Origin: Harriotta raleighana
Taxonomy: Eukaryota
Direction of reading: 5' to 3'
NCBI GenBank assembly: GCA_050575255.1
Contig: JBNZDD010013730.1
Location: 9,791,849-9,855,848, forward strand
Length of the DNA stretch: 64,000 bases
Within the stretch, counting starts at the first letter, position 1. Every line of letters starts with the position of its first letter. The notes beneath the pieces were generated by a model that worked only from the letters and a program-made list of their open reading frames with translations, did not search any database and was not told the DNA's origin. The translations under genes and the position numbers were made by a program. Positions 22,528 to 63,569 of the stretch are shown one piece after another.

Positions 22528-22568
22528 GAAGTTCAAAATCATATCAACAGTGGATGCAAACAGTCAAG
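22528..22568 (+). CDS. DENND1B: DENND1B exon: (G)SSKSYQQWMQTVK
   Basis: ctacag acceptor, gttaga donor, 41 nt, phase 1 to 0. Confidence 0.93.
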
Positions 22569-23195: not shown

Positions 23196-23264
23196 AAAGG
23201 CGGAGCCCTTATTAATACAGTGATGACCAAAGCAAATCCAGCCATGAAAACAGTGTACAAATTT
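23196..23264 (+). CDS. DENND1B: DENND1B exon: KGGALINTVMTKANPAMKTVYKF
   Basis: ttgcag acceptor, gtaagt donor, 69 nt. Confidence 0.96.
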
Positions 23265-23790: not shown

Positions 23791-23847
23791 GCTAAGAACC
23801 ATGCAAGGCAGGGGATCAAAGAAGTGAAGAGCAGGTTAAAACAGAAA
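23791..23847 (+). CDS. DENND1B: DENND1B exon: AKNHARQGIKEVKSRLKQK
   Basis: ttcaag acceptor after a long pyrimidine tract, gtatgt donor, 57 nt. Confidence 0.95.
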
Positions 23848-24423: not shown

Positions 24424-24543
24424 GAAACAAATGAGGAAGAAGATGACTCTCTTTGTAGTGATGGTCTATCTCCGAATTTGCAAAGGCGATCAAACTCCGA
24501 CCATTTACAAAATCGATTCCCAGCCACTAAACGCAAAAACAAG
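24424..24543 (+). CDS. DENND1B: DENND1B exon: ETNEEEDDSLCSDGLSPNLQRRSNSDHLQNRFPATKRKNK
   Basis: gcatag acceptor, gtaaga donor, 120 nt open, phase 0 to 0; loosely like the human ENEEDYGTC...KRK segment (recalled). Confidence 0.88.
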
Positions 24544-26810: not shown

Positions 26811-26825
26811 TGCCATCTAGTGGTC
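26811..26825 (-). promoter_or_regulatory. CTCF-like motif
   Basis: GACCACTAGATGGCA fits the CCASYAGRKGGC core. Confidence 0.45.
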
Positions 26826-28995: not shown

Positions 28996-29654
28996 GATTG
29001 TATCAGCAGCCCTTGCTTTGCGTAACTTTGGGTTGAATGGGTTTTGGAAGGTTCATCACAGTTTTTAAGAGTCCCTTAGCAATAAAGCTCCCTGAAAATT
29101 GGCATAGACATTTAGAGAATTGTAGATGTATAATTTCTCATTCTCTTTCCTGTGCTCTTCACATCAAAGAAAAATGTTTATTAAAAATATTTCAAAATGC
29201 GCTGTAAATTTCGAATAAATTCACACCATTGCCTTTACTTTTCTCATTGTGGCAACAGCAGTTCAATATTGGTGCATGCCACCTGCAGTGTTGTGCATCT
29301 GATAACAAACTAATTGCCATAATTTAAACAGAAGTGTTGTGTTAAATAGAGTATTAGCACTTTAATCTGCTGAATAACTCTTAAAACATAGTGATATTGT
29401 GCAACTTTGTCTTGTAACAATCAGTTACATTCTGCAGGTTGCCATTTTCTGATAATGTGTATGTTTAGCATTTTCATCCAGTTTAATTTAATCTCTAGTA
29501 AAAGGTTAGAAAGAACAGGAGAGATTATCGAAGAGAAAGGAATGGATCTTTAAAAAATCAATTCAACCTTCCAGACTCGATAGCAATTTGGAGTAAAATG
29601 ATTAACTAGATTATTTTTCCTTTTTTAATAATCCTAATATATAAATTCTGAGGC

Positions 29655-30091
29655 CAAATTGTGCACACCTACTATTTTCACTCACCTCTGAGACAGAAAA
29701 TTGTGGCTTCCAGTCTCACATTGAACTCTGAACTTATAAGAGTCCAACATAACACTCCAACATAGTGCCTGGGTTTGTTATGTTGGAGTTCCATCCTTGG
29801 ATAAAACATTAAATTGAGACCCTTATTCAAGCGGATATTAGAGATCCTAAAGCACTAATTGAAAAGAGAAGGGGGGTTTTATCCTGTATCCTGGTCAACA
29901 ATTCCCCCAGATAAAAATTGGTCATTCACCTTTTAGCTGTATGTGTGACATTACTGCACAATTTGGGTACCACATCTACATTCAGATAGACAGTCACTAC
30001 ACTTGCAGTATATCCCTTAAAGTGCTTTGAGATGTCCTATTGATGTGAAGGACACTATATGTAAGCATAATGTAAGGATTGTGAATGTAAG
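29655..30091 (+). mobile_element. Deu-domain-type SINE; source of the 28493-28834 duplicate
   Basis: ctcacctctgagacagaa head, gatattagagatcct and tcctggtcaacaattcccc core, aagtgctttgagatgtcc tail. Confidence 0.65.
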
Positions 30092-31466
30092 TACTGTGTT
30101 ATTATTGCAAAGATCTAACTTAATATTTTTAATATGTTTTAACAGTGAGTACTGGTCACATCTTGCAGGGAAATTATTGAGGGACAACTGAGCAGAACAA
30201 TGACTTCCTCACATTAATACCGTAGAAACTGTCATTAGCCCCATAGAGATTGCTATTAACCCAAGGTGCTTCAAATTTTCATTTTAACTACCAGTTGACA
30301 GAAGGCATATGCGAGCGTGGGCGATACTGTTTTTTTCTGTAGTGACACCATTTTCCTTCATGTCTTCCTTTGCTAAACTGCAGGGTAAACTGGCTGGCGC
30401 CAGGCAGAGTGAGACCTGGGTGTCAGTCCCCGCCAATCTCCTGCTGTTGATACAATGTATGGAGAAGTTATTACTTGCACCTAAGATGAATGTGTCAGTT
30501 GTTCAAAAAGTTTGTAACCTCTTCTGGTTTTAAACCAATTTCATCTCTTCTCCATTCTGGGGAAGTAGTGGCATCTATTTTTAATGCATAATCTGAAATA
30601 ATTTCCTCCCTGAAATTCCAAGTGCACTTGAAATATATTTAAATTGCATCAAGACTTGGCAGAGTGGAACTGTTTTATGCTGCCAAATGAAATGGGTAAA
30701 GCATAGCTTTGAAGCACTGAGAGGCATAGACTGTCAGTATGGGTGCTGATGCACTGGAAAGAACAGAGTTTACCCCCTGGGGTTATTTGCAGTCATTATC
30801 CAACATGAGTATGGAATAATGATGTATTCCATATCAGCCTGCCTCTTCAGCATGATTCTAAAAATCAGATTTACGCTGAGTATTGTGCCAGTAATAATCC
30901 AATTACTTGGTTCAAAATTTAAATTTTTCCTCATTTCCATGAATTATGACTATCCAATTAGGGCTTTAGAATGGGATACCCAAATATTCAGTAGCAAATG
31001 AGGGATTCCTGTTTTAGATTTTAATGTGTTTGATTGATTTAATCATACAGTCAACTACAGAAAGCTAAAAATATACAAGTGCTTAAACATTTGTTAATGT
31101 GGCGGCTCCTGAGGCTATAATATTGCTGTTGATCTATTAAGTTGAATTAATTATATCTTTATAAATGCTTTTTGCAAACTTATTGCAACCTCTAACTTGA
31201 ATTGTTCTGTTGAGAGAGGTCCCAGTTCCTTATAAAATTGATATTCAGAATCTTCCCAATTTAGGTTTGTCCTCAGGGACATAGTAATGAACTATAACTG
31301 TCCCTCCCTCTTTGCTTTTGATGTTTTATTGAATTCATTGCACTGGTCCAGGATGCATCAATTTATCCTGGAGAATGAACACCTTTATTCTTTCAGTTTT
31401 CACGGTTCCCAGGTTAAATATTGCTGCAATACATTATAATTTGCATTTATATAAACCTTAATATGT

Positions 31467-31773
31467 AGTCCGGTAGCTCAGTGGTTAGAGCACTCACTTT
31501 ACAAGCATGAGACCTGTGTTTGAATCCAGGCAGGGCGAAACGGTGAGCAAGTTTCCTTATTCCACACGTCTAATAATAATCCGTCCAAAAAAACCTATAA
31601 TAAATTGGTCATTTCAATCCACAACTGTTTGTGGAACACTGCTGTGAGCAATTGGCTGCTGTGTTTCACCCACATATATAATAGTCATTTCACTTTACAG
31701 TATATTCTGTGAAGTATCTTGAGATATCTAGAAGACTGAAAAGCGCTATAGCAAATGCAAGGATTATTATTAT
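31467..31773 (+). mobile_element. Full-length tRNA-derived SINE with L2-like 3' end and (TAT)n tail
   Basis: A box tagctcagtgg (31474), B box gtttgaatcc (31518), body ctgctgtgagcaattggctgc, tail gcgctatagcaaatgcaaggattattattat; multiple copies in the window. Confidence 0.88.
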
Positions 31774-32119
31774 ATGAAATACAAGACCAAAGACCAACAA
31801 ATGTAAGTTGTTGTTAAAAGCATCAGGCAATTTGTGCACAACAATCTTCTGAAAATAACCATGACATGAATGACCAATTCTATTTGTGATGATTGTTGGC
31901 TTGGACACTGGAAGAAACTCCCCACTCTTTTTGAATAATGGCATATGTGAATCAGCAAATGTGATCTTGCTTTAACATCTTACCTGAAAGGCAGCACATC
32001 CAACAAACAGCACTGTATTACAGTGTCACATTGGATTGCGAGTTCAAAATCCTGACATGGGATGTACACCTACAATGTTAGTGTAGACTGCTACAAGTTT
32101 CCTTACTTCACATACCTAG

Positions 32120-32313
32120 TAACAATCCTTCCCAAAAAAACACAACAGTAAAATTGGTCATTTAAATCCATGACTGTATGTGGGACACTGCTGTGTGCAA
32201 TTGGCTGCCACGTTTTGCCTACACAATTCATTTGACAGAATATTCTGTGAAGCACTTTGAGATATCTAGAAGACGTGAAAAGCATTAGATCAAAATGCAA
32301 GGATTATTATTAT
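32120..32313 (+). mobile_element. Same SINE family, 3' two thirds
   Basis: Matches about 31570-31773. Confidence 0.8.
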
Positions 32314-33169
32314 TTTCAGAAGAACTTTCATTTTTCCTCCAAAATGCACTATATACACTACTTGCAAAATAATCATTGATCAAATCATCAAAGGCTTTAT
32401 GAAGAGAAACAATGCATTTTTTAATCCCTCACAGCCATGCTGTTTGGAAACGCATCTTCTCATCGCGTTAGCACAATTTAAAATTTGAATTGTTCTTGGT
32501 GCAAATAGAGATTTATTCTTTTATAATGCTTAGCATTTTTTTTACAGCCATTTTGCAAACCAAATGAGTACAGAAAAATGCCAGCTTTGACAGAAATGGA
32601 CAAGGTTTATCCTGCCTCTAAAGGGACTATTTCCATGATTGATCAAGATGCACATTATAGTATTAAAGTTATTTTCATTTTTGATGTCTGACAGAAATAT
32701 AAAGCTTATATCAACTTTGGGGAAATAAAACAGTGGGGGACTGTGCATCAGTGCCCCGTCAGTAATGCTCTGTTCAGCACTGCTCACAGCAGCACATTTA
32801 CAACACCATATTGGATGTCACATTGTCTCTTAGAACATTGGACTGTGATCATCCAGAAAGAACTATGCCCTGCACATTTCAATAGATGATTCATACTTTT
32901 TTGCTCCCGATGCATCAATATTTGTGAAAGCCATGGGAGCTGAGCGAATTGCCATCGATTTTTGTTTCCCCTGGAAAGGTCTTCCAGTGGAGTCTGGGGT
33001 TTATAACACTGATACAGTACATGTCTTTATTTGTCTTTAACTGGGAGAAATTAGATTCTTGTTGTAGTGAAACAAAAATGAAAAAGTTGTTCTTATTTCT
33101 TTACGATTTGTAACATCGCCAGGTTCTCCAACTCCTGAGTCCTGCTTTTTAAAAAAAAATCAAAAACAA

Positions 33170-33552
33170 GAAACAAAGACTGTCTGTCTGACACTATAAA
33201 TTTATGACTGAATGTTGACACCTTTTGCAACATGTATGAAGCTTGCAGTGACTGTTTATTTTGTGGTGAATGCAGCAGCCAATTAATGCACAATAGTGTC
33301 TGTATAGCCATGAAATGGATGATTAAATGTTTTTCGGGGTATTGCCTGCCAAGACACTCCCTTTTCAAATAGTGCCACAGGATCTTTAACATCCATCTAA
33401 ATTGGTTTAATATATCATCCAAAGGATGGCATCTCACAATACAACAGTCCTCCAGTGCTGTTTTCAAGTGTCAACATTTACTGTTCAAAAAACAATGTAG
33501 GGCTTGAACCCACAACCATCTGACTTAGAGGCTTGAGTGCTTCCAACTGAGA
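33170..33552 (-). mobile_element. Deu-domain-type SINE (other copies about 31815-32080 -, 55832-56062 +, 63855-64000 +, 11090-11230 -)
   Basis: caaatagtgccacaggatctttaacatcca and ggcttgaacccacaaccatctgacttagagg are reverse complements of the core and head. Confidence 0.65.
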
Positions 33553-34939
33553 ATTGTGATCAGAAATGCATAGAATCACCGAATCTGCTGCTACAATGGC
33601 AAGGGAAACATTCCTACAAGATCAGAAAGTTATTTTGCAAAACACATGCTTTGACCATTGGTTTTGCTCATTTAAGATGTCAAGGTAGTTATTTTTGGTT
33701 TCCACTATTTAATTCTGGTAAATTCTGGTTACATTAAAAGAAAGTCAAATATATATTCTTCACATCAGCATGGCAGTTAATAAAAATGGAACTCCAACAT
33801 CCTGTAACTTGTTTCGCATCCTGCATCACATGTGTTGTCTGTCCTCTAGTGAACGATTTCTACAAGCATAAATGATTTTTTTGGCCAATAACCAGTTCAT
33901 TTTTAATGAAGTCGTCCAATCTCATACAATTCCACATTTCTCAGTGCAGAAGAAATAAATCTGGCACTGGAATTAAAAAGTACACGTTGGTCTCAAATTC
34001 AGTATCTAAAACCAAAGCCAAAATATCTGTTACCTCTGTCTCACAATTTATTTGGCTCCCTCAGGGTTGCTATGTTTTGCAGAGCAGAGCCAGCACCCAC
34101 AAAAGCAACATTTCTTCCAATAAGAGTTCTGGGACATCCTCAATTTTTACACTGCACAAATGCACTACCAAACATGCTAGAAACTGAGCACAAGACCACA
34201 GTGTGATATGAACAATGCTACGATTGCTGAAGTGAATTTTAGCTGGAATTGTAAATTGGTCTATCCACCCAACCGAGGCATAATGTGGGTGAAATCTTTG
34301 TGCTCCCCACAAGGGACCATGTCATCTGCAGACAAAGTGCGCAACACTTTCTTTCGAATGAAATCCATTCACAGATCAGAATTAAAGTTAAATGCAGTAA
34401 TCAATACTGGAGTTTAAGAATACAAATCTAGATTTATTGACAGGTTCCTTGTTCTTTTACATAAGATTAATATCCTCAGTTAAATGATACAAAATTGGAC
34501 GTAATTGTTGCAGCAAACTTAAAGAGAGACATACTTCACTGGTCTATACAATTATAGTATTTACCTCCATGTCTTTTTAGGCAGTTTCAGTTTTTTTTTC
34601 TCAATCTCAATGTTCCATGTCCAGTTGAGATGGATAAACATCCCTGTGGGAAAGCATATGGATATAGATATTAGGTCAGAACAGGTCAGAACACTCAGCT
34701 TTGTGACATTCTGTTTTCTGTTTTAAAAGCCTGAAGAATGACTTCTTAGGATGATTAATCAAATTGCTGTTGGTGGTTGTACTGTATAACCATATCCAGG
34801 CATGAGATAGTACCTTTAGGAGAGAGGGGATTAAAAAAATGATTCAATACTAAACTTGTATAAGATTTAAACCTAACCTTTTCATTTCAGCGAAGCTCAA
34901 ATGATTTTTCACAAACACTAGAATTGTTCTTTCATGGTA

Positions 34940-35175
34940 GAAGTTACAGAACATCTGCAATTAAATGGATTTGAAAATGTAAGACCAGAATAATACTTTA
35001 GAATGCACCAAGATAGTCGATCAAGGTTTAGAGTTGCAAAGGGCAATTTCAGGATATATACCAGGAAGTCATTCTTTACCCAGAGGGTAATTAACAACTT
35101 TAACAGGTTGCATGGAGGCATGCTTGAGGCCAGGGCACTGCAAAAAAGCAACTGGATGCTGTGTTGAGTGTAGTA
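34940..35175 (+). mobile_element. CR1-type LINE 3' fragment (others about 16745-16940 -, 7820-8010 -, 58063-58195 -)
   Basis: Encodes FRVAKGNFRIYTRKSFFTQRVINNFNRL, like the CR1 ORF2 C-terminal FFTQRVV-WN-LP motif. Confidence 0.7.
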
Positions 35176-38047
35176 AGACTTTCATTAACATTAGCTGATG
35201 TCTTGAATTGTAGAGCAACGATCTGATGTGACTTAGAGAAACAAATAAAGTATTGTCAAATCACATGACAATTGTAATTTTAAAAAACTGCAGAGCAATA
35301 ATCCTTTCCCTGCAAACACTGTAACTTTCCCTTTTTGGAATATGTGTCATCCAGAATAACTAGTATTTATTTGTTTATTATAATCTTCTAATTTCAAGTT
35401 TTGTTTAAAAAATTGAAATATTTCATATTTTTCTGAAATCTTCTTTGACAACTAAAATCATGTAAAAAGGCATTGACTTAGTGTCAGTTGACAGTTAACC
35501 AAACTATTTTTTAACATTTTTTAACATTATGACAAAAGTATATGTTGAACTTGTGCAGCATGTTGGAGGGTCATATGATGCAATAATGTGCAGCCTTTGT
35601 TTTCTTTCACTACAGAAATACAAACACAGCATTTAATAATTGATGCCACGTTTATACTATTCACCATTGCTTCCAGCAGTAGAGTGATCCAGAGAAGAAG
35701 ACAGGATTTCTGTTCCCTGATCCCAAATTACTTTTTAGCAGCAGTTAACTTTCACTATCATGTGACCAGCTCTTGAAAAACATGAAAAGTGTCAAGAATA
35801 TCTCAGTGGTCCACAGAATGACTTTTAAACAATTTCTTTTTAAATTTTAAAAGTTGTTAATATTGTAGTCCATTCATCAATTCCTATTTGGGGACCATAT
35901 TGCTTGGAAGGAAATTGGTATTTCAAACTTGTTTTGTGCTTCATAAACAAAATAATATTGAATTGACACTAACTGTGCAGTTTAAATAAGCCATAAGGTT
36001 TTATTGCAAATGGACCCTGTTTTAAAAAGTGCATTCTGTGGATCTTTGATTGATTTGGGCTCAGGACTCAAAAAGTGACATCAGCTACCTGATGACCCAG
36101 GATTAGGCCAAATTTTAGCATGGGAAGCCGCCAGCTTCTTGCAAGCATCTGTCGTTTTCTGACAGGCAGGCACTCATCATTCCCTATTATAAAATGGATT
36201 GAAATTTTATGGGCTGCTTTCTATTTTCTTATAATGGTACTGTATTGTGTGTTTTGGGTTTTGGTGTGTGTTGTTCATTCATAAGAAAGCGTGTGCTACT
36301 CAACTATGCATAAACTCAGATCAATGTACTGCATCAAATAGTAAAAGCAAAACAAATTGGTTCCCGGCTCTTTGCACAGAATCATTAATTTGTAGGTATG
36401 GGCAACAACTAAAGATTCTGGCCCTTTTGTGCTTTTGTATTTCTGTGCCATTGCAGTCTATAATTGCTTGAAATAGCTGGTTTGGTATTTCTTAACTATA
36501 GAACATTTCCCATAACAGATGGCCAGCCTTAGGCTAAATAAGGGATTATAGAAGACATATTGGAAGAACAGTGAATTTTAGCTTCTTAATTCTCAACTCC
36601 TGTTAATTTATGTTGATTATAGGTGAATGAAAAGTTCATTTTAAATGTTTTAGCAGTCTGACTGAATATGTATTTAATCTATTAACGTTCTCATCAAATT
36701 AATGAGAATATTGTGCTTCTGTCTCAGGATAGAAGTGGGACATTGGGCATGCAACAACATGCACATGGTATTGTCTTAATCCTTGTGCAATCTAGTTATA
36801 ACTGAAATGCCTGGAATTCTTATATGATAGCCTAAAGATAAGCTTTACATATGCTACATTCGGTCATTAAAGGCACTAAGTTCAATCAAATATTCATTAA
36901 TGATGCTTTTTGTTTCCTGATTTATTTAATAATATATTGACCTTATTATTTTTGCAAGAACTATTACATTTAATATTTTGCCCAGTTGCCTCAATCAGAA
37001 CAAAAATAAGTGAATACCCAGACAAAGAAGTTTTAAAAGTGTCCTTGACATATGCAATATTCACCCTGGCTTAACAAACTAAAAAGATTCCCAATTTTTA
37101 GGTAGGTAATTCAGTAGTTGTAGAAAAGAACAACTCATTGATGCTTGTTAAATTATTCGTTTAATTGTACTCAAAGATTTAAAGGTTTTTTTGGGGGGTA
37201 TCTAGTATATGTGCTATGGTCATGGAGGAGTGAAACTGGTCCACATCCTGTTAATTCACTAGTGGAAGCACAAAACCAAGCTAGCAATTTCCTATCCCAC
37301 AAAGGAAGTTCTATCACATTGGGCAACTGAGCAATTGGTTACAGACACAATATTTGACATGAACACACGTTGTCTTTTCACTGTCTTTATAAGGCAATTG
37401 GATGTTTCTTCAGGATACTTAGAAAAGGGAGAAAGAGGAAAAATATAAACTTAACTTGATACTCAATATAGTAGAGAGGGATTGTGTACTTGCTGACTGT
37501 TAGCATTTGCTTCAAGTGATGTGCTTTCACATCTAAATAATACGTTGTACATGAGGGAGATTTGTGTACATCGGAACCCCATTATAAAGCAGATCATTGG
37601 CATTATGTACCCCCACAGAACCCTCAGCTATGCTTTTTATTATTGTTAATGGATCTGAAAATTGATCTGTGGTCACTAATTGTGAAAGCAAACTAAAATG
37701 ATGCTGTTTCTTTTAGTGATATCAACCAGAATGTCCCTAACAGAATTCCCTCTATATACCTTAAAATAACTGCAAACAGCAGGAAACTGAGTTTATTTGC
37801 ATTTATTTCTGCATATATTTGACAAGTTCTGCCAGTGCATATATTTTATCCAGGGATTTTGAAAGATTTATGACTGCAGTGTCAGCAATTAATACAATAT
37901 TTTGAGACTGGCAATCAGAGCTCCCTATAATTACCTTCATTATGACTTCTGCTTACCGGGGAAGGCACTACATTTTTTTTAAATGTGTGCTGTTGCCATG
38001 TTATGAAAGCCATATGCATTTTAACCCCTTCTTGCTTACCGCTGCAG

Positions 38048-38059
38048 GGTTTCTGGAAG
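38048..38059 (+). CDS. Candidate 12-nt DENND1B microexon GFWK
   Basis: ttttaaccccttcttgcttaccgctgcag GGTTTCTGGAAG gtactt; frame-preserving in a phase-0 intron. Confidence 0.4.
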
Positions 38060-39637
38060 GTACTTTTTCATTCGTTCTGCTATTACAAAAATAGTCATTA
38101 AAACAATTCTGTCTGAAACAAAATGGCTTATTAACACATGCAACCAGTCAGTTGTACTTACAACAAAATGTATAATGAAGTACATTAAAGCTTGTTTTAT
38201 CCAGTAGGATCAAAGAGCACTCATTACTGATAATAGCCTTTGTATTCAAACAAGTAGTTCAAACATTAACTGTGGGTAATCATTAATACACTTTTTTTTG
38301 CTCTTTTAGTGCATTTTGACAACAAAGACTTTTTTATATAGTGCAAATATGGTATTGGATGCTGTTAGAAGATTACAGAGATGTTTCTGTGGAACTTCTG
38401 AGAATAATTATAAGAAACCTGTCATAAGGCTCTAAAATTAATGTTTGAACTGCTAGAACTTACTCATTTTATGTAGAGATAAGTACAGAGAATGGTGATT
38501 TATGAAAATGACTGTCAAACTAAATAACGTTATGAATAATCTTCTAGCAGGGAGAGTGAATTAATTTGCACTTATTTTAGTTTGCGTTTATTTTAAACTC
38601 CAGCTTACTTTCATTGTCTCCTGTTCCATCTATTCCACTGAAGATGATGATTCACACTGTAGTGTGGATCAGTGGGTTTTAAAGATTCCCATCTGGCAGT
38701 TTTTAATGTCTGAGATTTGAGTGAGTGTCAGCAAGCAATTTGACCGTGGCAAGGGAAGGAAAGCATCACAACAAAGATCCTTTTCTCATTCAACTTTCAC
38801 ACATTTCCTTGATTAAAAAATCACGATTGTGAACCTTTTTTACTCCTCTCCATTCAGAGAACATGAATGCCATTGCCATTCTGCTTGAGATCAATAAACT
38901 CAGTCCCTGGAACTTCTGCATGGTTCAGCTCCCTGCCAGGCAATCCGTCTGCCTACTGAGCTATTGGGGAAGGGGATGGGGAAAGAGATTGTGTAGCTCA
39001 TTCTGTGGTTTATCACCATTTGGTTTGCTTCAGACCCAAACAGCTTGGTGTTTGTATCGCATGACTTAAATAGGTGGATGCCTACAATTTCCTTCACACT
39101 TGGTTTCTATTCTCGAGTGTGCTTTGCAAGTTGTGCTTAGGCCCTTCTCCTATACCTTCCCCTCCCCTGGTATACATAGTGGCCAAATGTAGAGCAGCAT
39201 TGGTTAGTTAGTTTGTTCTTTAGAGAGCTGAAGAGTTTTTCTGCCAGAACCAGAGAAGGAAATGTTTGCTTAATTGTACACTCTATATTCTGTTTATAAC
39301 ACACTTTCACCTTAGATTAATTCCCAGAAGAAAAAGCCTTAAAAGTAAAGGAAGGTAAAACTCAGGCCACAATGAAGACCTATCCTTTATACTCAATAAT
39401 GCTGATTAATAACAGGAAATTGCAAGAGGGCATGAACAATTGCCAGTAAATAGTCATTAGAATTTCTGAAGATCATTTAGCCTGCAATTGTATAAGATGT
39501 CTAACACTGTTTTTGTATGCTTCATTTGTTTAAGATGGGATACATTTGATTAATCCATTTACTTGGGTTAATTGGGCTAAAAATTGAAGTTACCAATAGG
39601 TTGGCTTGAAACTAAATACTCACTTACACACTCCAAT

Positions 39638-39646
39638 GAGATGTTT

Positions 39647-39696
<50 letters not shown>

Positions 39697-39950
39697 ACCC
39701 GTAGGGGACGACTGCACGACTGAAGTGAAGCTCAGCCAAGAAGATATCCGTCTCTCTTGTGGACTCAGCGCAAGTCGCTAGTACGGTCTTTCATACAAAC
39801 TGGTCCGCGGTGTCGCCTCTGGCACTTTTCAGCATTAAAAAAGTATTTTCAGCATTTAAATTATTAATTTTTTTACTGATGACCCTTCGCAACCCTACTG
39901 AGGACCCCTGAACCCTGATTTGGGTCGGGACCCGAGGTTGGGAACCACTG
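39638..39950. mobile_element. Non-autonomous hAT/Charlie-like DNA transposon (MITE)
   Basis: Right end aggttgggaaccactg, left end gagatgtttccaacct (12/16 inverted match); internal gaccc repeats; GC-rich; no clear 8-bp TSD. Confidence 0.6.
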
Positions 39951-40056
39951 CCTTATATAAAGGCTTTATATTTCCTTGCCTACATATTTACAACTCATAG
40001 ATATTGGTACAGGAAAGAAAGGGCTTCATCCCAGGGCTGCTTCTTGACAGATTATT

Positions 40057-40306
40057 AATAATAATAATAATCCTTACATTTGAAAAACGCTTTTCACATC
40101 TTTAAGACGTCTCAAAGCTTATTACGGAATTTACTGTAAAGTAAATTAACTGTATATTTGTGGACGAAACGCATCAGTTTTTTCTGAGGAATTATTATTA
40201 GGCGTGTGGTGTAAGGAACCTTACCCAAGGTTTCGCCCTGCATGAAATCAAACCCAGATATCTCCTTTGCAAAGCGAATGCTCTAACCACTGAGCTACAG
40301 GACTCC
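40057..40306 (-). mobile_element. Same SINE family, internally deleted copy
   Basis: Head ctctaaccactgagctacaggactcc and (AAT)n tail present; central segment missing. Confidence 0.85.
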
Positions 40307-40475
40307 ACGGCCCAACTCACATGTACTTAAATTTTCATCAAATAATTGTTTTTTTTAAACTGATAGGGATGAAATGATCATGGTCAAACATTCTAAAACT
40401 TAGCACAAAGTCTTTCACGGGCATGATTAGGATATAAAATAGTTTTGTACAATTCAAAATTGAATTTTTTTTTAG

Positions 40476-40540
40476 GTTCGCCCTCAACATTCTCTTGCTG
40501 GTGATCATGTTGAAGATGATGAGACTGACAGAGCAAGCAA
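40476..40540 (+). CDS. DENND1B: DENND1B exon: VRPQHSLAGDHVEDDETDRAS(K)
   Basis: poly-T/ttag acceptor, gtaagg donor, 65 nt, phase 0 to 2; resembles human RPLKSLDG...DIERASK (recalled). Confidence 0.88.
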
Positions 40541-41736
40541 GTAAGGAATTGTTTGAATTGTTTTATTGTGATCCCTACTTCATATGCTTGGTACCTCTTG
40601 GAAACAAAGGACTGTTATATGTTTATCTTTTAGCCTCAATTTAGCCTTCCATACATCCCAAACTCAGCACAAATCAAGATTTGAACCATTAATCTGGGTC
40701 CACAAGCTGAAGCTCCATCCATAGCCCCATTGGAGTTGTACATTTAAACTTGTATACCACTACAGCTGGTGCGAACAAGCAGTGTCAGACTGCCTCCATG
40801 AGGTTGTCTCGCACAGCTTCTCTGAACAGATATTGGGCTCATTAAATCTGCAACTTGTGCCATCTGCAATCACGCCAGTGCAAACTATACTTTGAGCAAC
40901 CTGGGAGCTTTTTTACTGAAGACTTTAGCAAACATTCATATCAGAGAATTAAGGTATCACAATATTTCATCATATTGTATGGAGTAATGCCAAATTGCCC
41001 TTACACAGTACTTAATTGTACTAAATCATTTCACATTAGAACTTAATGTTTGTTGCAAACAGTTTTGTGTATTAATGTTCAGTCTGAATTAGTTGTTTAA
41101 AAAAATTGAGATTTTGCAATGATTGTTTGTACCTTGGCATTTAATGTGCAAGTCTGTGTTTAGTTTCCTTCTAATTTCCATAAGAGAATGGGTGTTTTTA
41201 GTGTGCCAGTAGAAAAAGAATATGCATCAATGCTGACCTCTACTGGTTTGAAAATATCAAACTGCATTTATATTAGTCCTGAATGTTTTCCTGAATATTG
41301 ATTCTGAGTAATATTGATTCTAGAACTACTCAATAGTTCAAATTGACTATTTGGAAATGAATACTACAGGTTTCAGGTCATTCGGCCACTTTGAGATTCG
41401 TAAACCTTTCTACTCTAATGGCAGCATTCAGAATTTATAGATAACCATTTTGTATACATCCCACTAATTAGCAACAATACACAGTTTCACTCAGGAATGC
41501 AGCAGAGGGAAATGGAAACAACCACACAATGGTGCATTGGAGCATCACTTTCCTGAGGTTAGAGAAATCGCACATTGTTGAAGTCAAGTGAACCTCACCA
41601 TGCTATATCTGAAGAGTGTTTGATGGTGATGCTGGCTGCTAAAACTAAAAGTATTCTTGTTCACTGGGATGACATTTCTGATGTGTGCCTCTTCCATTCC
41701 TTAATAGAATATCATTTTATTCTTCACATCTCTTAG

Positions 41737-41953
41737 GGTATCTTCAGAAGACAGCGGAGAAGTATCTGCATATATTGATGATAGTGATGATTCTGAACAG
41801 ATGGATCTCGAGTCACAGTATCCAGGCCAAATGGATCTACTTGGAGAAATTTTAGATACACTCAGTACAACTAGCTCAGAACAAGGCAAACTATATGCTG
41901 CAAAGAGCCTAGATTTCTTCAAATCGATGGATGATATCAATTATAAAGCTGGC
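41737..41953 (+). CDS. DENND1B: DENND1B exon: VSSEDSGEVSAYIDDSDD...MDLLGEILDTLSTTSSEQGKLYAAKSLDFFKSMDDINYKAG (clathrin-box-type DLLGE)
   Basis: tcttag acceptor, gtaagt donor, 217 nt, phase 2 to 0; overlaps ORF 41801..42067. Confidence 0.96.
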
Positions 41954-42234
41954 GTAAGTGCTCTGCATTGCTGTTCTCATCTGTTGAATGCATACACAGT
42001 TAAACCTTCAAGAGCAATAGAATTGATGTTCAGTTTTTATTTTAAATGTTCGAAGATGACACAATAATCGTTTGCATTTTAGAGATTTAAATGTTCACTT
42101 AATTATAGGAATTAATGGGTCTTCACTATATTTTGACATTGTAATTCTGGTCTTGACCATACATCCATATACTGTTCATAGAAAGCTTGGGATTTGTTAT
42201 CATTAATAACTGTTTCTTGTATATTTTGTTTTAG

Positions 42235-42801
42235 AACAAATCTAATACTCCCAGTGAAGGAAATCTGGCTGAACTTGGTATAAAGGATGCAAGCCATTTG
42301 GACTGGCACTTAGGACAAGATGACACTGTGGTCCATAGAAAGCCTCTTCCCCCGTCACCAAGAAAACCACCTTGTTTTGTGCAAAGTTCAGTCACACTTG
42401 AAACGAAAGCTGGTAAAAATTCCTGTGTTTTTGCTGAAGATTTTACAAAAACCCTTGTAGACTCACCATTGTCCTCAATTTCAACGGCAACAGTTGCTTG
42501 TGGTACAGAATTCAAGAAGGAAGGGAAAATATCATCTAAAGTAAAGGAACAAAAACAAACACTAACCAGTGCAGACAGTACCTCTGAGCAACAATGTCCA
42601 GAAGGGAAAGTAAGATACTCATCAGTTCTAATTCCTTGGGAGAAAGAAGATTCTCAGATTGAATTGAAAGATGACTCAAATGCATTAGATCTAAATGATA
42701 TACTGAAAGAAATTGACTGTTTGTGTTCTGGTTTTGAAACGGGTCAACCCATCTCCAGTGATAGTTCTTCCACTGCCAACAGTGAAAGCAAAGTGCAGTG
42801 A
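42235..42801 (+). CDS. DENND1B: DENND1B terminal coding exon: NKSNTPSEGNL...WHLGQDD...LPPSPRK...IPWEKE...SESKVQ*
   Basis: ttttag acceptor, 567 nt to TGA, in frame with ORF 42298..42801. Confidence 0.95.
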   Translation, partial: NKSNTPSEGNLAELGIKDASHLDWHLGQDDTVVHRKPLPPSPRKPPCFVQSSVTLETKAGKNSCVFAEDFTKTLVDSPLSSISTATVACGTEFKKEGKISSKVKEQKQTLTSADSTSEQQCPEGKVRYSSVLIPWEKEDSQIELKDDSNALDLNDILKEIDCLCSGFETGQPISSDSSSTANSESKVQ

Positions 42802-49400: not shown

Positions 49401-52303
49401 TAGAATGGATTTTATAGTAAAGCTCCAAACTTTCCAACTCAAAAAATTAAAAACAAATCACTTTCTCTGCTGGCTTTAATCAATCCCAGTTCAGAAACTA
49501 TAAGCAAATTGCCATTGCACGTTCAATGCAGTATATATATCCTGCGATAAAATAAAACTATTCATCTTACTGGGACTTTGTGGCTGGAGATAGATGAACT
49601 CCTGAAATAATGTGTTAGATGGTACCTGATCATTTTGATTTTACTTCACATTACCCTTTTTATTTGGGGTGAAACACATATTTTAGACAGACCTTTAAAT
49701 CTAATAGAAATGATCATAGCTACAAAAAGCACTCCATTCAAACTTGTGTATTTATCCGTAGTTATGTAAATGACTGACCTCACTAAATGTTACTGTAATT
49801 AAATTTGGTTTGAAAATGGTTCTAAACAAGAAAAATGCTGTTTTCTCCAAATAGAAAACCTGTTCATGAATTATGGGCAAATTATTTCATCTGTTTCTAA
49901 ACTGTTTTTTCTCCCAGATAACTCTTATGTCTAAAAATAGAATTTTGCTGGTGATTGAGAGGTTTGAGATCCTGCAGTGAAGTATGTTCGAGTATTTATC
50001 AAGTTCAGTCAATTTATAATGTGGATTTTCACTTCAATTATGTAAATGACATGGCTGGCAGTAAAATACTGTGACCAACTATACCTTGGCTGCTCCAAAA
50101 AATGTCACTAATTTAACTAACTAGTTGTGTCAAAGTACAGTCAGTATAACATTGCAAAAGACACACAATTTTGTATAAATGTAAAGGTCTGTCACAGTGA
50201 TGAACAAAATCTGCACAGAAAGGCTTGTTTTACAGCAATGCAAGCTCTGAAACTTGGGATCGAGTTCACATGTCGAATTTCATTTTCAGCACAGATTCTC
50301 GAACCAGCAGTTACAATGAAATGTTATTTTGACAAATATTGCATTGAACAGTTCAATTGGAATGAATATGAATATTGAATTAACAATGGGCAGAAGTAAA
50401 TGACTAACAGTGAAGGGATATTTATTATAACAACCTCAGCAAAACACATCCCATCTTTTTAAACTGTTCTTAGATCAAATGTGTTCAAAAAATCTTTCAT
50501 ACATTTCTACAGCTCACTGAATGATGTTAGTGAAGGGCTGACATGAAGCTCCTCACTCACATCAAAATACATGGCTGTCCAGTCGAGTGCCCTGCAAAAC
50601 AGAAGTGGATCCAGACTAATTCTTAGCGTTTCAGCTCCAAAAAAAACGAAGTTATTAGGACCTGAAACATGTTCCGTAATGATTTATTCAATCTATTTTT
50701 AAATTTAGGATGACTGCTTCAGGAAGTTTAAAATCAACGCATCAGCTTCAACGACAGGAATAGTTTGTTCTCTTCAAATCCAATCTGCTTTTTAATACTT
50801 TAATACATAAGAAGGCTAACTAAAATGGTAGCTTAAAAACATAACTGTAACTTAAAGTCATTACATGGCTACTAAACATAGTAAAACAAGAAGATCTCAC
50901 AATCTTCTTGAGTGGCTCAGGCGAACCGGCACTGATTTTAAACCTGGGTCATTAGCAAGGAAATCTTTTCACCTTCATCAGAAAAGAGGTTTCTATTGAA
51001 ATAGGCTGTTTAGTTGAGCAAAGCTCCAATTGATTACTTTGAATCACTGTAATAACAAGTTAATATCCTGGCAAAGGCAGAACTGGCAATTGCCACATGT
51101 GAGGAGCTGTGTGACACAATTGGGACATGGTCCCGACGTGAAAGGCGCTATACAAATATAATTTTGTTGTTGTTGTATTCATGATGACCTTACCTAAGAA
51201 AACTAACCTTAACACTGTCTTCATTTTTTCCCAATTGAAATGCGTTGCTTTCTTTCTCGATATATTTGAAGTGTTTGTTCGAACTGGTTATGAGTTAGAA
51301 AAGTTTGCTAGTTCAGAGTTAGTCGGATTAGTTTAGCTCTCAACTAATAATTTTTTTCTAACATTGTGTCATAGAAGAAAGAGTAGGTGTTAAAAGCACC
51401 ATAACACTGTTGAATCTACTGTCTAATACATTTGTTTTTTTCAATATTTCAAAACATTTATAGCTGCAAAAGCAATATAGGATTTTTTTTTAAAAAGAAA
51501 GTACTCACCAAATATTCTGAACCTGAAATATGAACATTTAGTTCCTTCAATTCTACTGCAGTATGAGCACTGCAAGTGCATTGGGATCAGAAAATTAACT
51601 CACGCTGTGCTTCAGTCAGCTCTTAACCCCTGCCACCCCATGCCCCAGTCAACCAATAGGCCAAGTATGTGCATGGGTAAAATTGCATCACAAGCCAATG
51701 ACACCAGATTGAAACACTAATGCTCATGCTTAATTATTCTGAGTGAAAAAGCAATCTCTACAATAAGGAGAATTTTAGATTTCTTTATCCTCTTAAGAGT
51801 TCACTTGGGTTAGTTTGGAGACTGCTTGGGCAGACAGATAAGGTGAAAATGACACTCTCGTGGAAGCAGATAATAAAGAGAAAATAAGAAATAAACAGCA
51901 ACAAGATATTCCCTTCTCACAGTCTAAGCTAAGGGGAATCTACATTGTGGAGACAAGAGGCCTGAAGGTGATTAGGATAATATTGTTTTTGATCAGTTAA
52001 ACCTAGAATCAATGAGATTAATGGTACAATAGGATTCAGCGAATCTCGGCAACGGTAGAATTGGTTCCTCCACCGAAGCTAAAACTGCTGATCCATATTG
52101 TTGTGCCCATTCATATTGATTTTGGAGAGGAATATATAAAATTGTTGGGAGAATTTAAGTTACATGGGATTTTAAGAGCACTCTAAGGCATGCCCAATCA
52201 ATTATTTAATCAAATACTTTAAACCTCTGTAATGTAAGTATTTGTAGCATGTTCAATTTGATGCTTGGTGTTCACTAAGCTTCCCATTTTGTTATAAACT
52301 TGT

Positions 52304-52519
52304 TCAAATCAGTCTCTCCATTGGAGGAGGCTGCACCATGTTCCACATCTCCACACGTGACCCCTCCTTCTCCTGTCGGCTGGGGCTGTAGGTCCCCTGT
52401 GTTGCCCTCTTATTCAAGGCCACAATGAAGGCTGCGAGTACTAGAAGCAGAATCAGCAACAGAGCCACGGTCACCAACCCAATGTACAGAAGAACTTCTG
52501 AGGTCCAAATATCCAGGTC
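52304..52519 (-). CDS. CRB1: Canonical CRB1 terminal exon: [71 protein letters not shown]
   Basis: Translated by hand (absent from the ORF track); ctgttttgactctgtacaacag acceptor, phase 0; [11 protein letters not shown] and [25 protein letters not shown] match human CRB1 as recalled. Confidence 0.96.
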
Positions 52520-52748
52520 CTGTTGTACAGAGTCAAAACAGTTAAAGAAAAGTTTAACCCACAGAGGGTTAGCTTTGAAGCTGCCATGCTACGAAAAACA
52601 CATTCAATTCTGAAGCCTCACAACAATTGCAATTCCTCGTACGTTGTTTGATAATACAATACAGGGAATACCTGGGACTTTCCAGATTTAAAAAAATATT
52701 CTTCCCAACATAAACACAACTCTCACACAGCACAGGTGCCTGAATGTA

Positions 52749-52970
52749 TCAGATCAGCCGCTCCTCTGGTGGCAATTTGAGAGTACTGTTCATTTCCATC
52801 CGCGGTCCAGTGTGTTCCTGATTGCTCGGGCTGTATGTTCCTTCAGTCTGACGCTTGTCACGCAGTTTTAAAATCAGAACAAACAGAATGATAGCCAGGA
52901 CTATCACTCCTGCAATGACGCACGGGACCACAATAGCTGCTATGTTTACTTTATAAGGCGCTGGATTTGT
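52749..52970 (-). CDS. Extra CRB1-locus terminal exon, CRB2/CRB3-type TM + tail: [73 protein letters not shown]
   Basis: ttattttcacag acceptor, phase 0, intact 73-aa frame with TM helix, GTY FERM-binding motif and ERLI PDZ-binding motif. Confidence 0.9.
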
Positions 52971-53569: not shown

Positions 53570-56329
53570 CTGAACGAAAGCACAAAAGGTAGAAAGATAT
53601 TTTAAATGCAGTTAGTTCTTGCAAGGTTCTTGTGGTCGATACATTCCTGGGATAATGCATATACAGTAATTGGACTAATTTCTCAGTAGCTGTAGCACTG
53701 ATCACTGTATCAATTAATGGCATTTGAAAGATCAAATGAAGTTTTAAAGGTAAGCCTGCCTCGACATAGAGAATCAGTTTTATTGAGCCCTTCGTGTATT
53801 ACAGCATGAAAGCTGAGTCCAAAACATAGATTAGAATGCTGTTATGTCAAGTTAAATCTATCAACTTACAGATGTGGTATTATCAGCAATTGTTGATTGC
53901 GAAGGATCTGTTACATTCGACACTGCAAAGGAACCAACACTATCATAAAGTTGTTATGGAATTGTTGCAAATTTGTCATTTCAAAGTCAAGTCACAACTT
54001 TACCAGATAATCAAGAAAAATTGCAAACACCTGTCTCTTGTTATGAAGGAAGCTGTTAAGTGTCCACTGAGCACTTTTTTTTAATATCCTTTTTAAGGTC
54101 ACTTAAGGATGACCACATGACAGCAGGTAAGTTCTTTTAAGTCGGGGGAGAATTGTCAAGCCCTCTTCGTGTGATTCCAGAGTTTCAAGTACAGGAAAAT
54201 AGCTCTGATCTGTGCCACAAAGTGACTGAGGGACATCAGGTCTCCGTTTTATGCAGGATGATGAATATAGACACATGCGAGAGATGGGTGTAAGAATGTT
54301 AAACCCACACTCGAACCTTAAATCATGTAGCCAGTTCTACAACAGTCCTTAAAAACTGAAAATGTGCATTTAAATTATGCATCACTTGCATGAAATATAG
54401 CTAGAAAAATTATGGCTATTCACAAAAGGTTTCCTAACTAGACAGTGCTCTTTCAAACTAGACATTGCTCCTTTGACAAGTTACGAGCCACCCATTCTTT
54501 AGACTGCCTGCTCTCATTATTCAACAACAGGCACTACATATTGGGTACTGTTCCTGTAATGTGGTTCAGACACTAAAGATTAAGAACTATTGTTAGTGTA
54601 TTGTTTAGAGGGATTCAACAGATCGTGACAAGGGCAAGTTGTGTTTTCAGATACCCTGTATTTTAAAGAAATTGAAAAGCCCAGACCTTTCTTTTTGCAG
54701 GCCTAGTTGGGATCTCAGCCAGACGCGGGCGGGAGCTGTGACTGCACATTCCCACCAATTCACTGGTTGACCCAGTTTCTCTGGTATGGATTAATGCAAC
54801 AGGCTGATTACCATGACATTCCCCGAATCTGAGTAAATCTGGAGCCTGGCAGACTGCCCATTACAGGGTGTACTGCCATTATAGTTAAAGCTGAAAATAA
54901 AACTACCTGTAAAGCTCACTGGCTGAAAACATGGTGTCTTTTACATGTATTTATGCTTTGCAGTTTATTCTGTGAAGCTCTTTGAGATGTTTCAATGATG
55001 TGATAAGTCGCTATATCATATGCAAGGATGATTATTGTTATCAAATGTTATAACCATACATAGTATGACACTAATTTTCTAATGTAACAAATTTTCTAAG
55101 GCAGTAATTTTTAACTGACGTCTCAGATAAAAGAAAATTGTCAATCACAGATATTAATATTCTTTTGGCTGGAACCTCTCTCGGAGCTCCTTCTTCATTG
55201 TTTTCGCTTTATAATACTTACAGTTAACCTACCATCTTAGCCTGGCTGTTTATTACACTATAGTTTTCTTTGAACATTATTTCCCCATTCTTTATATTTA
55301 ATGCAGCTTGAAACTGTAAGGCTCAGGCTAGGAATGACTTCTTCTCCATTTACAGGGGTAACTGAAAGCTTGCTGCATGTAATTTGGTGGCCAAAATATG
55401 TCTTTTATGAATTAGAAAACAGTTTCTGGGACTTGTCACACCACTCACCTTCATTTTGCAAAAGATGAAGTGTTCAGACAGGCTAGGGTTATATAGTGGA
55501 GATAATGATGCTTTACTCACCATTTGTGACTAAATTACCTCTAAAATCCCATTATGTTGTTTCTCAAATAGAATCCTTTTAATTATTCTTGCTCTTTGCT
55601 TTCTCCTTCCTCAAAAGATTATGAAATGCTTATATTTTAAACTACAGTTTAATACTCCTTGTTTCAATGCTGCATTGGAGGTTACACTTTCAGTTTAGAT
55701 GAGAAGTGATGTATCTGTCTGATTGACGCCTGTTGTTGATGTACCGTATTCAGTCGTAATATCGTTATCATGTGGCAAACAGTTCAAACAAAATTTTGCT
55801 GATCTATTTGGTACGCAAACAATCACAATCTAGGTGTCAGTCTGGCTCACTTGGTAACACACTCCCCTCTGAGACAGAAAGCTGTGTTTCAAGTCCAATC
55901 AAATGCAAGGATTATTATATTGGGGAATTGAAATCACAGCTGACACTTAAGTGCAGTGCTGGGGAACAACGCATTGACTTCAGATACAACGTCTTCTCTT
56001 TCTGTTCTGGTGGACAAGAAAGATCCCATCGCACTATTCAAAAGGGAAAGGGAGGTTTTTCTTAAAATGTTTCTGATGTTTGTGAATAGGATTTTCTAAA
56101 GGAACACTACTTGTAATCCTCGCGGTGTTTGCTTTAATTTTTTGTTATTTGTAGATTAAGACACAGCAAGAAATTTCAGCACATTTCCTGATCAATATTA
56201 TTATTTGTTTTCCAAAAATGAACAGTTCGAGATGCTGGTGCCTCAGTTATAACCTAATAAACAACTGTCCGTTCACAAATGACTATCATCTGATTGTCCT
56301 GAGCTTCTGAAAACCGTCAGCAATTCACA

Positions 56330-56946: not shown

Positions 56947-56968
56947 CTGTAGAGTTTGAAGAGTCTGC
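56947..56968 (-). CDS. Candidate 22-nt exon in the last CRB1 intron
   Basis: tttttgttcaag GCAGACTCTTCAAACTCTACAG gtaaac; reads ADSSNST in phase 0 or (W)QTLQTLQ in phase 2. Confidence 0.35.
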
Positions 56969-58852
56969 CTTGAACAAAAATATTAAAAACGAAAGCCAAA
57001 TGAGGTTTAAAAGCAGTCTTTCCATATTAAGCATAACCATTTGAAATGCAGTCCCAGGATTTTGGTGATAGTACAGAAGAATTCAGTCATTGGAAAGACC
57101 TTCCACCACCAACAAGCTCGCAATGTAGCACAATGAATGTATCTGTACTTCAGGCTGCTGTAAAAGGCTGATTCATCTTGGTAGTTCCCACTATGCTCGA
57201 CCTCTCTTCTTTTTCTGCTCGATGATCCTTAGAGCCTTTACTTTGCCATTACTATTCCAGTGAAAAATGTTGAAACTGATCTAAAGATGCGCAGTCGGAT
57301 TAGTTTTAGCATTCGCCGGTAACCTCTGTCTGTATATTTTAACGCTAGCAATTTCTGTCGGCCGTCCTTCACATACCTGGCTCTAGTTTCAGGTTACAGC
57401 CACACCTGAACCCTGGCAGATAAAATATCCGAACCTACAGTGCAACCTATTGTTAGGTCCCCATTGCTGCCTTCAGCTGGCCTAGGAAAAATTGACCCCA
57501 AAAATCTTCAAAATTAAAAGCTTTCAGAACTCTTTCCTAGTACAATACTGACATTAATTTGCATTAAAAAAACACATCTTTGTATGCTGCAATTGAGCTA
57601 CATATCAAGATTAATCTGCACTGACCTTGAATAAAACACAAACCCACTTTACCTTATTGGTTTTCCCCCCTATTCATGAAGGAAAGAGGTTATATTAAGA
57701 TGACTTTGCATTGATCTTGTGGATTCTTTGAATCTCTAGCTCTTCTGTATCCATAAGTACATTTGAACATCTCAAAAGCATGAGCCTGAAAATATCAGGG
57801 CTGGTTATCAATTAATTTCAAGTAAATTGAATGGTTTTGAATCTGTGGTCGAGTCAAATTTGGAATGAGGCTGAAGAGGACTTGTAGAAGGTCAGGAGAT
57901 TTCAGATAACTAATGAATTGAATCCCACTATTCACTCCCAGTACTTCAGTGAATTGAATTTAAGATCCTCATGGTCTGTGTTTCATTCCAAGTTCTTGGC
58001 CCATTCTACATATGCAATCTCCTCCTGCACTAAATTCCAGCCCGTATTATTCGTTCTTTCAATACAGAAACAGATGTAGGCTATTCAGCCTCTTGAGCCT
58101 GTTCTACCATTCTATAACATGATGATCTGTATCTGCACTTCAAGTCCAATTACCCGCCCTTGCCCCGTATCCATTAATACCTTGACAATTAGGCATCTAC
58201 TCTGATTTATTTCACCTTAAGCTATCTCTGAAACTTCACCAAAGTTTCTTCCCTGGTTACATCTCTCCGTAACTTTAAAAAAATCTCTTAAACTGCCTTT
58301 GGTCAACACCTTTGGATCTCTTATTTCTCTGCTTGGTATCCACCTCTATGTTTTTAAACTTTTTTTCATGTCGAAACTGCTGTATAAATGATTTGTGATG
58401 CTGTTTTTGAGGCTGCCTTGTGCAAGACCCGCCACCTGGTGGTGCCTTATATCAATTTGTAGCAAGAACAATTGAGGTGAACATGACAAAACATCAGGCT
58501 TAGTGACAGAAGACATCTCTTTCTGTGCGTACAGATTCCTGTCAGTCACGAGACATAGGTGAAATCCCATTTGTAATACCTTGGTATTAAATCATTCTAA
58601 TCTGTTTGTTTGATTCCAAAATAATACCACAATTCTCAAAGAATTATGACCATATAATTTTATGATATTAAAGAAATTATTGAGCAAAGTCAAATGGTTA
58701 TGAAATGTAGCAGTTGGCAACTCTATTTTAATTGTAATTTTAAAACTACAATGGTGAGATACTCATCTCTTATGTCCTGTAAGTTCTACATTTGTATGTC
58801 TTTAAGTTCTAACAACTTGGTTCCTTCTTACTGCTAGGCAAACAGAGGTGGG

Positions 58853-63331: not shown

Positions 63332-63442
63332 TCAGGCCCACTCAACTGCTGGCTCATCATCCATTCGAAGTATGAGAAAGGAGAGAAGCTGAAAAAGATT
63401 TTGCCAAAGTAGCAAAGAGATGAAAAAGAAGAGATCGCTTAC
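63332..63442 (-). CDS. CRB1: CRB1 intron read-through C-terminus (exon 11b / CRB1-B type): [36 protein letters not shown]
   Basis: Open frame continuing through the donor; close to the human alternative end [36 protein letters not shown] as recalled; AATAAA 20 nt after the stop. Confidence 0.88.
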
Positions 63443-63569
63443 ATCCATTTCGCATCGGTCACCAACAAAGCTCATGTCGCAGATGCACTGGAACCTGCCG
63501 GGCAGGTTCTGACACAGGCCCCCATTCAGACAAGGGTCCGATTCACATTCATCAGCGTCCATCTCACAC
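63443..63569 (-). CDS. CRB1: CRB1 last EGF-like exon (exon 11 equivalent): [42 protein letters not shown]
   Basis: cggcag acceptor, GAT|gtaagc donor, 127 nt, phase 2 to 0; EGF cysteine spacing. Confidence 0.96.

Follow-up and report, generated by a model that had tools for sequence, protein, structure and literature searches.

Twin tail exons and a nested CRB3-like unit at the CRB1 locus of Harriotta raleighana

The CRB1 locus and its two tail exons

The window, by which we mean the whole stretch of 64,000 nucleotides that was analysed (64 kb with zero N), contains the end of a Crumbs gene on the minus strand, whose EGF and laminin-G exons extend upstream of the window, and the exons of a convergent DENND1-family gene. 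Two exons encoding a transmembrane (TM) helix and an ERLI tail are present; they are named P (proximal) and D (distal) here, so as not to be confused with CRB1-A and CRB1-B, names already in use for isoforms. The features are as follows.

8525..42798, plus strand: exons of a DENND1-family gene, convergent neighbour, used as a synteny marker only
51712..52303, minus strand: shared 3' UTR, at least this far, from an X1 contig, with ATTAAA at 52210
52304..52519, minus strand: exon D, TM helix and canonical CRB1 tail
52520..52748, minus strand: spacer, 3' UTR in P-ending transcripts and intron in D-ending ones
52749..52970, minus strand: exon P, TM helix and 37-aa tail of the CRB2/CRB3 class, last coding exon of the nested unit and, on the basis of gene models, also an alternative last exon of long CRB1
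53870..53922, minus strand: exon M, 53 nt, entered in phase 1 and left in phase 0, with good splice sites, coding for a stalk rich in Ser/Thr that has N-glycosylation sequons
56947..57392, minus strand: exon S, probably the first of the nested unit, comprising a 5' UTR that contains in-frame stops and the coding part 57040-56947
63332..63442, minus strand: donor read-through tail, hydrophobic 36-aa end of CRB1-B type, third possible C-terminus, ORF intact
63443..63569, minus strand: last EGF exon of CRB1, from the sequence and a 4088-nt spliced X3 contig covering 63442-63570

As a sequence-only reading of this DNA had described, the acceptors of P (52970, preceded by ttttcacag) and D (52519, preceded by gtacaacag) lie 451 bp apart on the minus strand and open stop-free frames of 73 and 71 codons, respectively. 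Each frame encodes one hydrophobic TM helix followed by a 37-aa tail with the sequence RxxxGxYxPS and a terminal ERLI. RxxxGxYxPS is the FERM-binding motif in the form given in PMC5968619 and is present in both exons, and the Thr residues corresponding to the aPKC sites T6 and T9 of fly Crumbs (PMC2172211) are retained in both P and D of the window. The residue after the first aPKC-site Thr is Glu in P, Gln in D and Arg in the fly. The tail profile matches the Drosophila Crumbs tail in PDB 4wsi with an E value of 1e-17, and D is of one class with the peptide given for human CRB1 in PMC4356366. A phase-0 GT donor directly after 63443 ends the last EGF exon. Both acceptors had been proposed to fit this donor, and the EGF-to-P and EGF-to-D joins indeed agree residue for residue with database proteins at the junction.

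P shares 70/73 residues with a Callorhinchus model and 54-60/73 with four shark and ray models, and this conservation excludes chance. Contigs of a related organism run colinear across P, spacer and D, so an assembly chimera is not the cause. The twin-exon feature is real, old and conserved. Neither AATAAA nor ATTAAA was found in the spacer 52520..52748; since no poly(A) hexamer occurs between the P stop and D, and an X1 contig continues through D, the P forms carry D in their 3' UTR. In several shark and ray CRB1-P tails (P0002, P0004, P0013, P0015, P0142-P0144) Asn replaces the Thr matching fly T9, which is kept in CRB1-P of Heptranchias, Mobula and the window.

The identity of the host gene was based on a quick-method tree of a single ectodomain exon with 30 rows, which places it inside the CRB1 clade (SH-aLRT 99), beside CRB1 of Callorhinchus with 90% identity, and so points to a chimaera-like cartilaginous fish; CRB2 was not recovered as a single clade in the same tree. 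Summed tblastn scores were also tried as a discriminator of CRB1 and CRB2 and gave no separation, the two databases being unequal, and the ectodomain tree was used instead. The DENND1 exons of the window disagree, one favouring 1B (66 vs 51 bits) and another 1A (55 vs 49). Three DENND1 genes were found in the same genome, two of them convergent with a Crumbs gene. The human pairs we take to be CRB1-DENND1B, CRB2-DENND1A and CRB3-DENND1C. DENND1C lies near C3 and CRB1 near CFH, and in zebrafish the cfh block, a neighbour of crb1 in teleosts, is on chromosome 22 (PMC7768046).

A short CRB3-like unit in the last intron

Four of 11 runs were compared over 50000-63700. None of the runs is catalogued as RNA. 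X1-X3 are contigs of another organism, presumed to be RNA; X1 and X3 are taken as RNA-containing because their contigs skip introns at exact exon ends. Run X9, with about one read per exon bin, was not used. Such contigs lose rare forms and carry no information on starts, strand or level. Interspersed repeats at 50914-51370, 58683-59139 and 61882-62338 show very high depth in all four runs, and related repeat ORFs occur again at 2533-3193 and 27929-29052.

Two small exons precede P in the last intron of CRB1. Exon S has ATGs at 57040, 57034 and 57025, a signal-peptide-like hydrophobic stretch, called by hydropathy only, and a phase-1 donor after 56947; the in-frame stops 5' of its ATGs fit a 5' UTR. 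It is represented by contig pieces in X1 (56947-57392), X2 (56947-57290) and X3 (56952-57133), its upstream limit of 57392 being a contig end and not a mapped start, and 7-11 of its 26 residues are common with four shark and ray models. For exon M, 17/18 residues are identical in the Callorhinchus model P0141. The joined product S-M-P has 117-122 aa and consists of a signal peptide, a short stalk without EGF or LamG domains, a TM helix and an ERLI tail, which is the architecture of CRB3.

The splicing of S, M and P is seen in one X1 contig of the related organism, based on its table of contig pieces and on depth arithmetic. This 2009-nt contig (contig 2) runs from 57392 to 56947, continues with 53 unlisted letters, and then from 52970 through P, spacer and D to 51712. 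The gap of 53 letters equals the length of exon M, and the depth of 1.19 in the X1 bin equals 10.3 x 53/457. An S-M-P spliced transcript thus exists in a relative. The account of the locus as a choice between two long tails is therefore incomplete, since P also terminates a CRB3-like transcript that is nested in the gene and apparently begins within its last intron.

From S-M comes the sole use of acceptor 52970 visible in the RNA contigs. The junction 63443-52970 from the EGF exon was seen in none of the four runs, with a hole over P and D in X2. In X1 and X3 the S-M-P contig and the EGF and D contigs account for all of the bin depth at the P acceptor. In X3, the 4088-nt contig ends in the EGF exon plus 29 letters and contig 15 starts exactly at 52519; these ends would fit an EGF-to-D junction with the usual k-mer overlap. 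A joint 52409-63513, which lies off the splice sites, was disregarded. The joint table, of which 15 rows of 172 were given, consists mostly of repeats. The read-through tail is covered by an X2 contig continuous over 62795-63570; the Mustelus model P0010 has this ending, and the end of the window's read-through ORF matches the mouse CRB1-B antigen printed in PMC7335077.

A short-length database search matched eight of nine candidates, namely five chondrichthyan 'CRB3/CRB3-like' models and three tetrapod CRB3 proteins. The five chondrichthyan models, entered in RefSeq as a separate 'CRB3-like' gene, match P at 54-70/73 and M at 8-17/18 residues. The Mustelus model is on a contig equal in length to that of its CRB1, probably the same one, and the units of Carcharodon, Narcine and Mobula presumably lie inside CRB1 too, judged from sequence. 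In a model of the shark S. torazame (P0302) the last EGF exons, S, M and P are joined in series. The nearest Atlas clusters to a shark orthologue of S-M-P are CRB3 (score 0.97). The nested unit is nevertheless not a free-standing CRB3 orthologue, for it sits inside CRB1; Callorhinchus and Mustelus also own a separate CRB3, which groups with tetrapod CRB3 apart from CRB1-P. Four tail queries found no standalone CRB3 in the fragmented assembly studied here. A third DENND1 exon was found on a tiny contig full of triplet repeats (L033, G000:C763, 1056 bp), which is probably a fragmented part of the region where the standalone CRB3 is expected.

In models from tarpon, eel and mudskipper (P0149, P0185, P0199) a diverged P- or CRB3-like unit is fused to exon D of CRB1, with ERLL as its end in tarpon, and the nested unit probably survives in some teleosts. 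The idea that zebrafish crb3b is the nested unit of crb1 was rejected, with crb3b placed at 1:56.73 Mb (PMC3747860 supplement) and the cfh block on chromosome 22 (PMC7768046). As the place of crb3b is at odds with the crb1-linked cfh block, the 'crumbs homolog 3b' label in Periophthalmus is no evidence about zebrafish. Positions of crb1 and crb3a were not found in the searched part of the PMC3747860 supplement, and the supplements of PMC10601974 yielded no coordinates. In PMC5676222 crb3a/b are regarded as a zebrafish duplication.

P and D tails in CRB2 and in other species

Searching the same genome with P gave six candidates, and the four that matched were P, D and a further pair of exons on contig C13702, separated by 1.3 kb. 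This pair constitutes the last exons of a second long Crumbs gene, in the order P then D, convergent with a 1A-like DENND1. We call the gene CRB2 on three grounds: the grouping of its P tail with tails of named CRB2 proteins (99/97), its position outside the CRB1 clade, and its 1A-like neighbour. Like-to-like identity between the CRB1 and CRB2 tails is 55% for P and 55% for D, with cross identities of 42-48%. No S- or M-like exons were found in the last intron of CRB2 (11,984 bases, including 1,194 N, about 10%) by a scan that recovered both in CRB1 together with one extra signal-like and two extra micro-exon candidates. Thus the short unit is not datable to before CRB1/CRB2.

Several further observations concern this CRB2 gene. 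DNA homologous to the CRB1 read-through lies beyond the CRB2 donor (L007 about 505-400, minus strand), with TGA where CRB1 has TGG, so that the third ending is also older than the CRB1/CRB2 split. The acceptor of CRB2 D (L005 7213-7210, minus strand) has the form NAGNAG; in each of tit, axolotl and turtle there are two D models that differ by one residue at the D junction (P0097/P0030, P0032/P0104, P0078/P0133), which suggests a conserved tandem acceptor. An EGF exon ORF with its flank occurs twice inside CRB2 with identical translation, about 11.7 kb apart (G000:C13702:6514048-6515279 and 6526115-6527010), as either an assembly duplication or a recent segmental copy. The ORF downstream of CRB2 gave no informative match in the Atlas.

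All isoform support from other species consists of automated gene models. With P as a query, three long proteins, all chondrichthyan CRB1, were matched among 57 candidates. Among the 21 of 25 cluster members listed, long CRB1 ending in P was present in Heptranchias, Pristiophorus, both Scyliorhinus species and Cetorhinus, and D-ending CRB1 models in S. canicula, Cetorhinus and Callorhinchus; CRB1 of S. canicula and Cetorhinus thus shows both tail types. Models of five shark species join the EGF exon to P cleanly, among them four of the six listed S. canicula isoforms. Two Callorhinchus UniRef models reach P through malformed junctions. Tail switching by 3' splice-site choice, as earlier proposed for CRB1, is accordingly represented among gene models and, as described above, not among the junctions of the four runs.

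The query with CRB2-D returned 59 proteins among 195 candidates, all of D type. Named matches are from birds, amphibians, turtles and lizards, and one is gecko CRB1; no mammal or teleost names occur among the 59, in a word-limited search that is no evidence of loss. In eight of ten clusters, P- and D-ending CRB2 models were found in one species (a tit, axolotl, two frogs, a newt, two lizards and a turtle), and both kinds of model exist for CRB2 of the shark Heterodontus. The orthologous EGF-to-P junction is the standard one in CRB2. Many bird proteins named CRUM1 carry CRB2-type D tails (P0025-P0074, P0082-P0095), and four bird models labelled CRUM1 or crumbs 1 group with reptile CRB2 in the ectodomain tree (100). 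The bird CRUM1 labels are likely a misnaming driven by the tail.

A tail tree was constructed from 65 rows and 66 columns, hand-picked from about 300 proteins with most near-identical bird rows omitted; many rows were classed by sequence, one nemertean is the named invertebrate row, and no cyclostome is identified among them. All 20 D tails are on one side of a branch with 100/100 support, which corroborates the assignment of D to the canonical CRB1 class. Likewise, 19 P tails and 13 CRB3 tails group together (98/95), as the assignment of P to the CRB2/CRB3 class had predicted. CRB1-P joins CRB3 with 92/90, which is under the starred threshold in a short alignment with many open forks. Outside both the D and the P+CRB3 groups are 13 invertebrate-type tails. 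Tails of this type, the fly sequence of PDB 4wsi among them, resemble D at the front and P at the end, a mixture to be expected of an ancestor with the exon still unduplicated.

An AU test on 28 rows rejects a clade of all CRB1 tails (CRB1-P+CRB1-D) with p 9.4e-5; the hypothesis came from the sequence-only reading, and the test was run after the tail tree had been seen. With a CRB1-specific duplication rejected, the P/D pair is older than the CRB1/CRB2 split. This and the same pair in CRB2 bear out the view that the exons are no recent duplication, and the P/D order in CRB2, the tail trees and the AU test agree with the proposal that the Crumbs gene before the paralogue split had both. P is conserved in sharks and rays, it is no lineage-specific copy within CRB1, and the assembly is not chimeric here. 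Mammalian CRB1 would have kept D and mammalian CRB2 P, the mammalian genes not being known to have more than one tail exon each. The accompanying suggestion that the paralogues later lost one exon each would fit mammals, but CRB2 has both exons in a shark, amphibians, reptiles and birds.

Origin of the tails and relation to known Crumbs systems

The best explanation, to which we give a probability of about three in four, is that tandem P and D exons existed before CRB1 and CRB2, that a short S-M-P transcript arose within the gene in the CRB1/CRB3 line, and that the products were divided among the copies after genome duplication. A single TM and tail exon would have duplicated in tandem in the vertebrate stem, before CRB1/CRB2, giving P and D. 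The last EGF donor would then choose among read-through, acceptor P and acceptor D, and in the CRB1/CRB3 line an intronic start with the small exons S and M may have added the short S-M-P form. After genome duplication CRB3 would have kept S-M-P only, non-mammalian CRB2 both P and D, and chondrichthyan CRB1 everything. The products of the locus would accordingly comprise long-D, a read-through of CRB1-B type, short S-M-P as an apical protein like CRB3, and probably long-P, and a P-ending mRNA would hold D inside its 3' UTR, with the same 3' end as the D form and no junction after the stop. An own promoter of the nested unit, the splicing of long-P, the order of the losses and a difference in function are parts of this reading that we infer.

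Tissue-specific use, with a short epithelial and a long neural form, and different behaviour of the TM and FERM-binding regions would be the likely purpose. ERLI binding is textbook knowledge, and both tails should bind PALS1 and PAR6 through ERLI. The affinity of the isolated PALS1 PDZ domain is set by the last four residues alone (PMC4356366), so P and D should not differ there. Any difference would more likely involve the TM helix, the residue that follows the first aPKC-site Thr, or a Trp-containing segment of D.

The rival that has most to recommend it, though we consider it unlikely, holds that P of CRB1 serves the nested unit only and that long P-ending CRB1 models are artefacts of gene prediction, the EGF exon having been linked to a strong acceptor close by; tail switching would then be real in CRB2 only. 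It accommodates the spliced use of 52970 from S-M alone, the separate 'CRB3-like' gene of RefSeq in five chondrichthyans and the malformed junctions of the Callorhinchus models; the clean EGF-to-P joins in five shark species and the standard status of the orthologous junction in CRB2 argue against it, and the comparison rests on four runs whose contigs drop rare forms. A somewhat less likely order of events reverses the direction of transfer: a free short CRB3-like gene came first, landed in the last intron of a long ancestor and was captured as a tail, so that CRB3 is old and the usual CRB2 tail is a captured CRB3 exon. Short Crumbs proteins do exist outside vertebrates, C. elegans CRB-3 being put nearer mammalian CRB3 (PMC4359734), and invertebrate-type tails, ending like P and starting like D, make neither exon clearly original. 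Yet the 13 invertebrate-type tails, with C. elegans CRB-3 not among the rows, lie outside the P+CRB3 clade (98/95), which indicates a vertebrate-stem origin common to P and CRB3; moreover, P has the same phase and order in both long genes, and S and M were not found in CRB2.

Separate origins of P in CRB1 and CRB2 by duplication, gene conversion or convergence, or a chimeric assembly, are largely refuted and highly improbable. Tails are short and constrained, which makes convergence conceivable, but the AU test (p 9.4e-5) speaks against one CRB1 clade, the P-D order is identical in the two genes, and the exon is colinear in the contigs of another organism and conserved in sharks and rays.

Returning to the tandem pair divided among paralogues, we lean, with less confidence than in that core, towards a wider account of the family. 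CRB3 would have been born as a nested short transcript in an ancestral long Crumbs gene and freed when a copy from genome duplication lost the rest; both tails would be old alternative exons, and the switch between them would persist in CRB2 of sharks, amphibians, reptiles and birds; CRB1 of chondrichthyans and some teleosts would hide a second CRB3, and dead remnants may persist in the last introns of human CRB1 and CRB2. The data suggest that the three mammalian Crumbs genes are divided pieces of one multi-purpose ancestral gene. This provides a concrete, testable origin for CRB3 and for the difference between CRB1 and CRB2/3 tails in a family involved in inherited blindness and kidney disease. 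In chick, frog, salamander and lizard, CRB2 is probably able to produce a tail of CRB1 type, which bears on knockdowns, tail antibodies and paralogue assignment in those models. One ectodomain with either tail, both kept since before the shark-tetrapod split, also constitutes a natural experiment on the function of the tail classes, a question relevant to replacing CRB1 by CRB2 in gene therapy.

Splice forms can be partitioned among duplicates after genome duplication, each paralogue retaining a subset, and the Crumbs genes would be a clean case of this general mechanism. What would set the Crumbs case apart is that a whole paralogue, CRB3, owes its origin to the partition and that cartilaginous fishes still show the ancestral state. 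A literature search of mostly open-access scope, with the original zebrafish crumbs papers outside it, found no description of twin ERLI exons, of a CRB2 isoform with a D-type tail or of a CRB3-like unit inside CRB1. The pieces of the twin-tail arrangement are already in automated databases, as the earlier caveat about isoform annotation had allowed: RefSeq and UniRef models such as XP_038650790/791, XP_007893872 and XP_023794146/147 include both tails and the short protein. These models carry no interpretation of the arrangement; in automated naming the nested unit becomes a separate CRB3-like gene, and D-ending CRB2 is often called CRUM1 or 'crumbs homolog 1-like'.

Among the mammalian isoforms CRB1-A, -B and -C (PMC7335077), D corresponds to the tail of CRB1-A and the donor read-through to that of CRB1-B, which is without the polarity motifs that P keeps. 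Internal promoters in CRB1 are already known from that work, and its available passages mention neither a second ERLI exon nor a signal-peptide unit in the last intron; it covered size-selected cDNA of retina and cortex, and a short epithelial form is compatible with it. Zebrafish Crb2b-lf and Crb2b-sf (PMC7044448) are likewise long and short proteins from alternative starts of one gene. However, crb2b-sf starts in intron 7 and keeps parts of the ectodomain, whereas S-M-P apparently starts in the last intron and is without EGF and LamG domains. In layout the nested unit resembles CRB3 (CRB3A), with 117-122 aa for S-M-P and P as sister to CRB3 (92/90); unlike CRB3, it lies in CRB1 and has its last exon and 3' end in common with the host.
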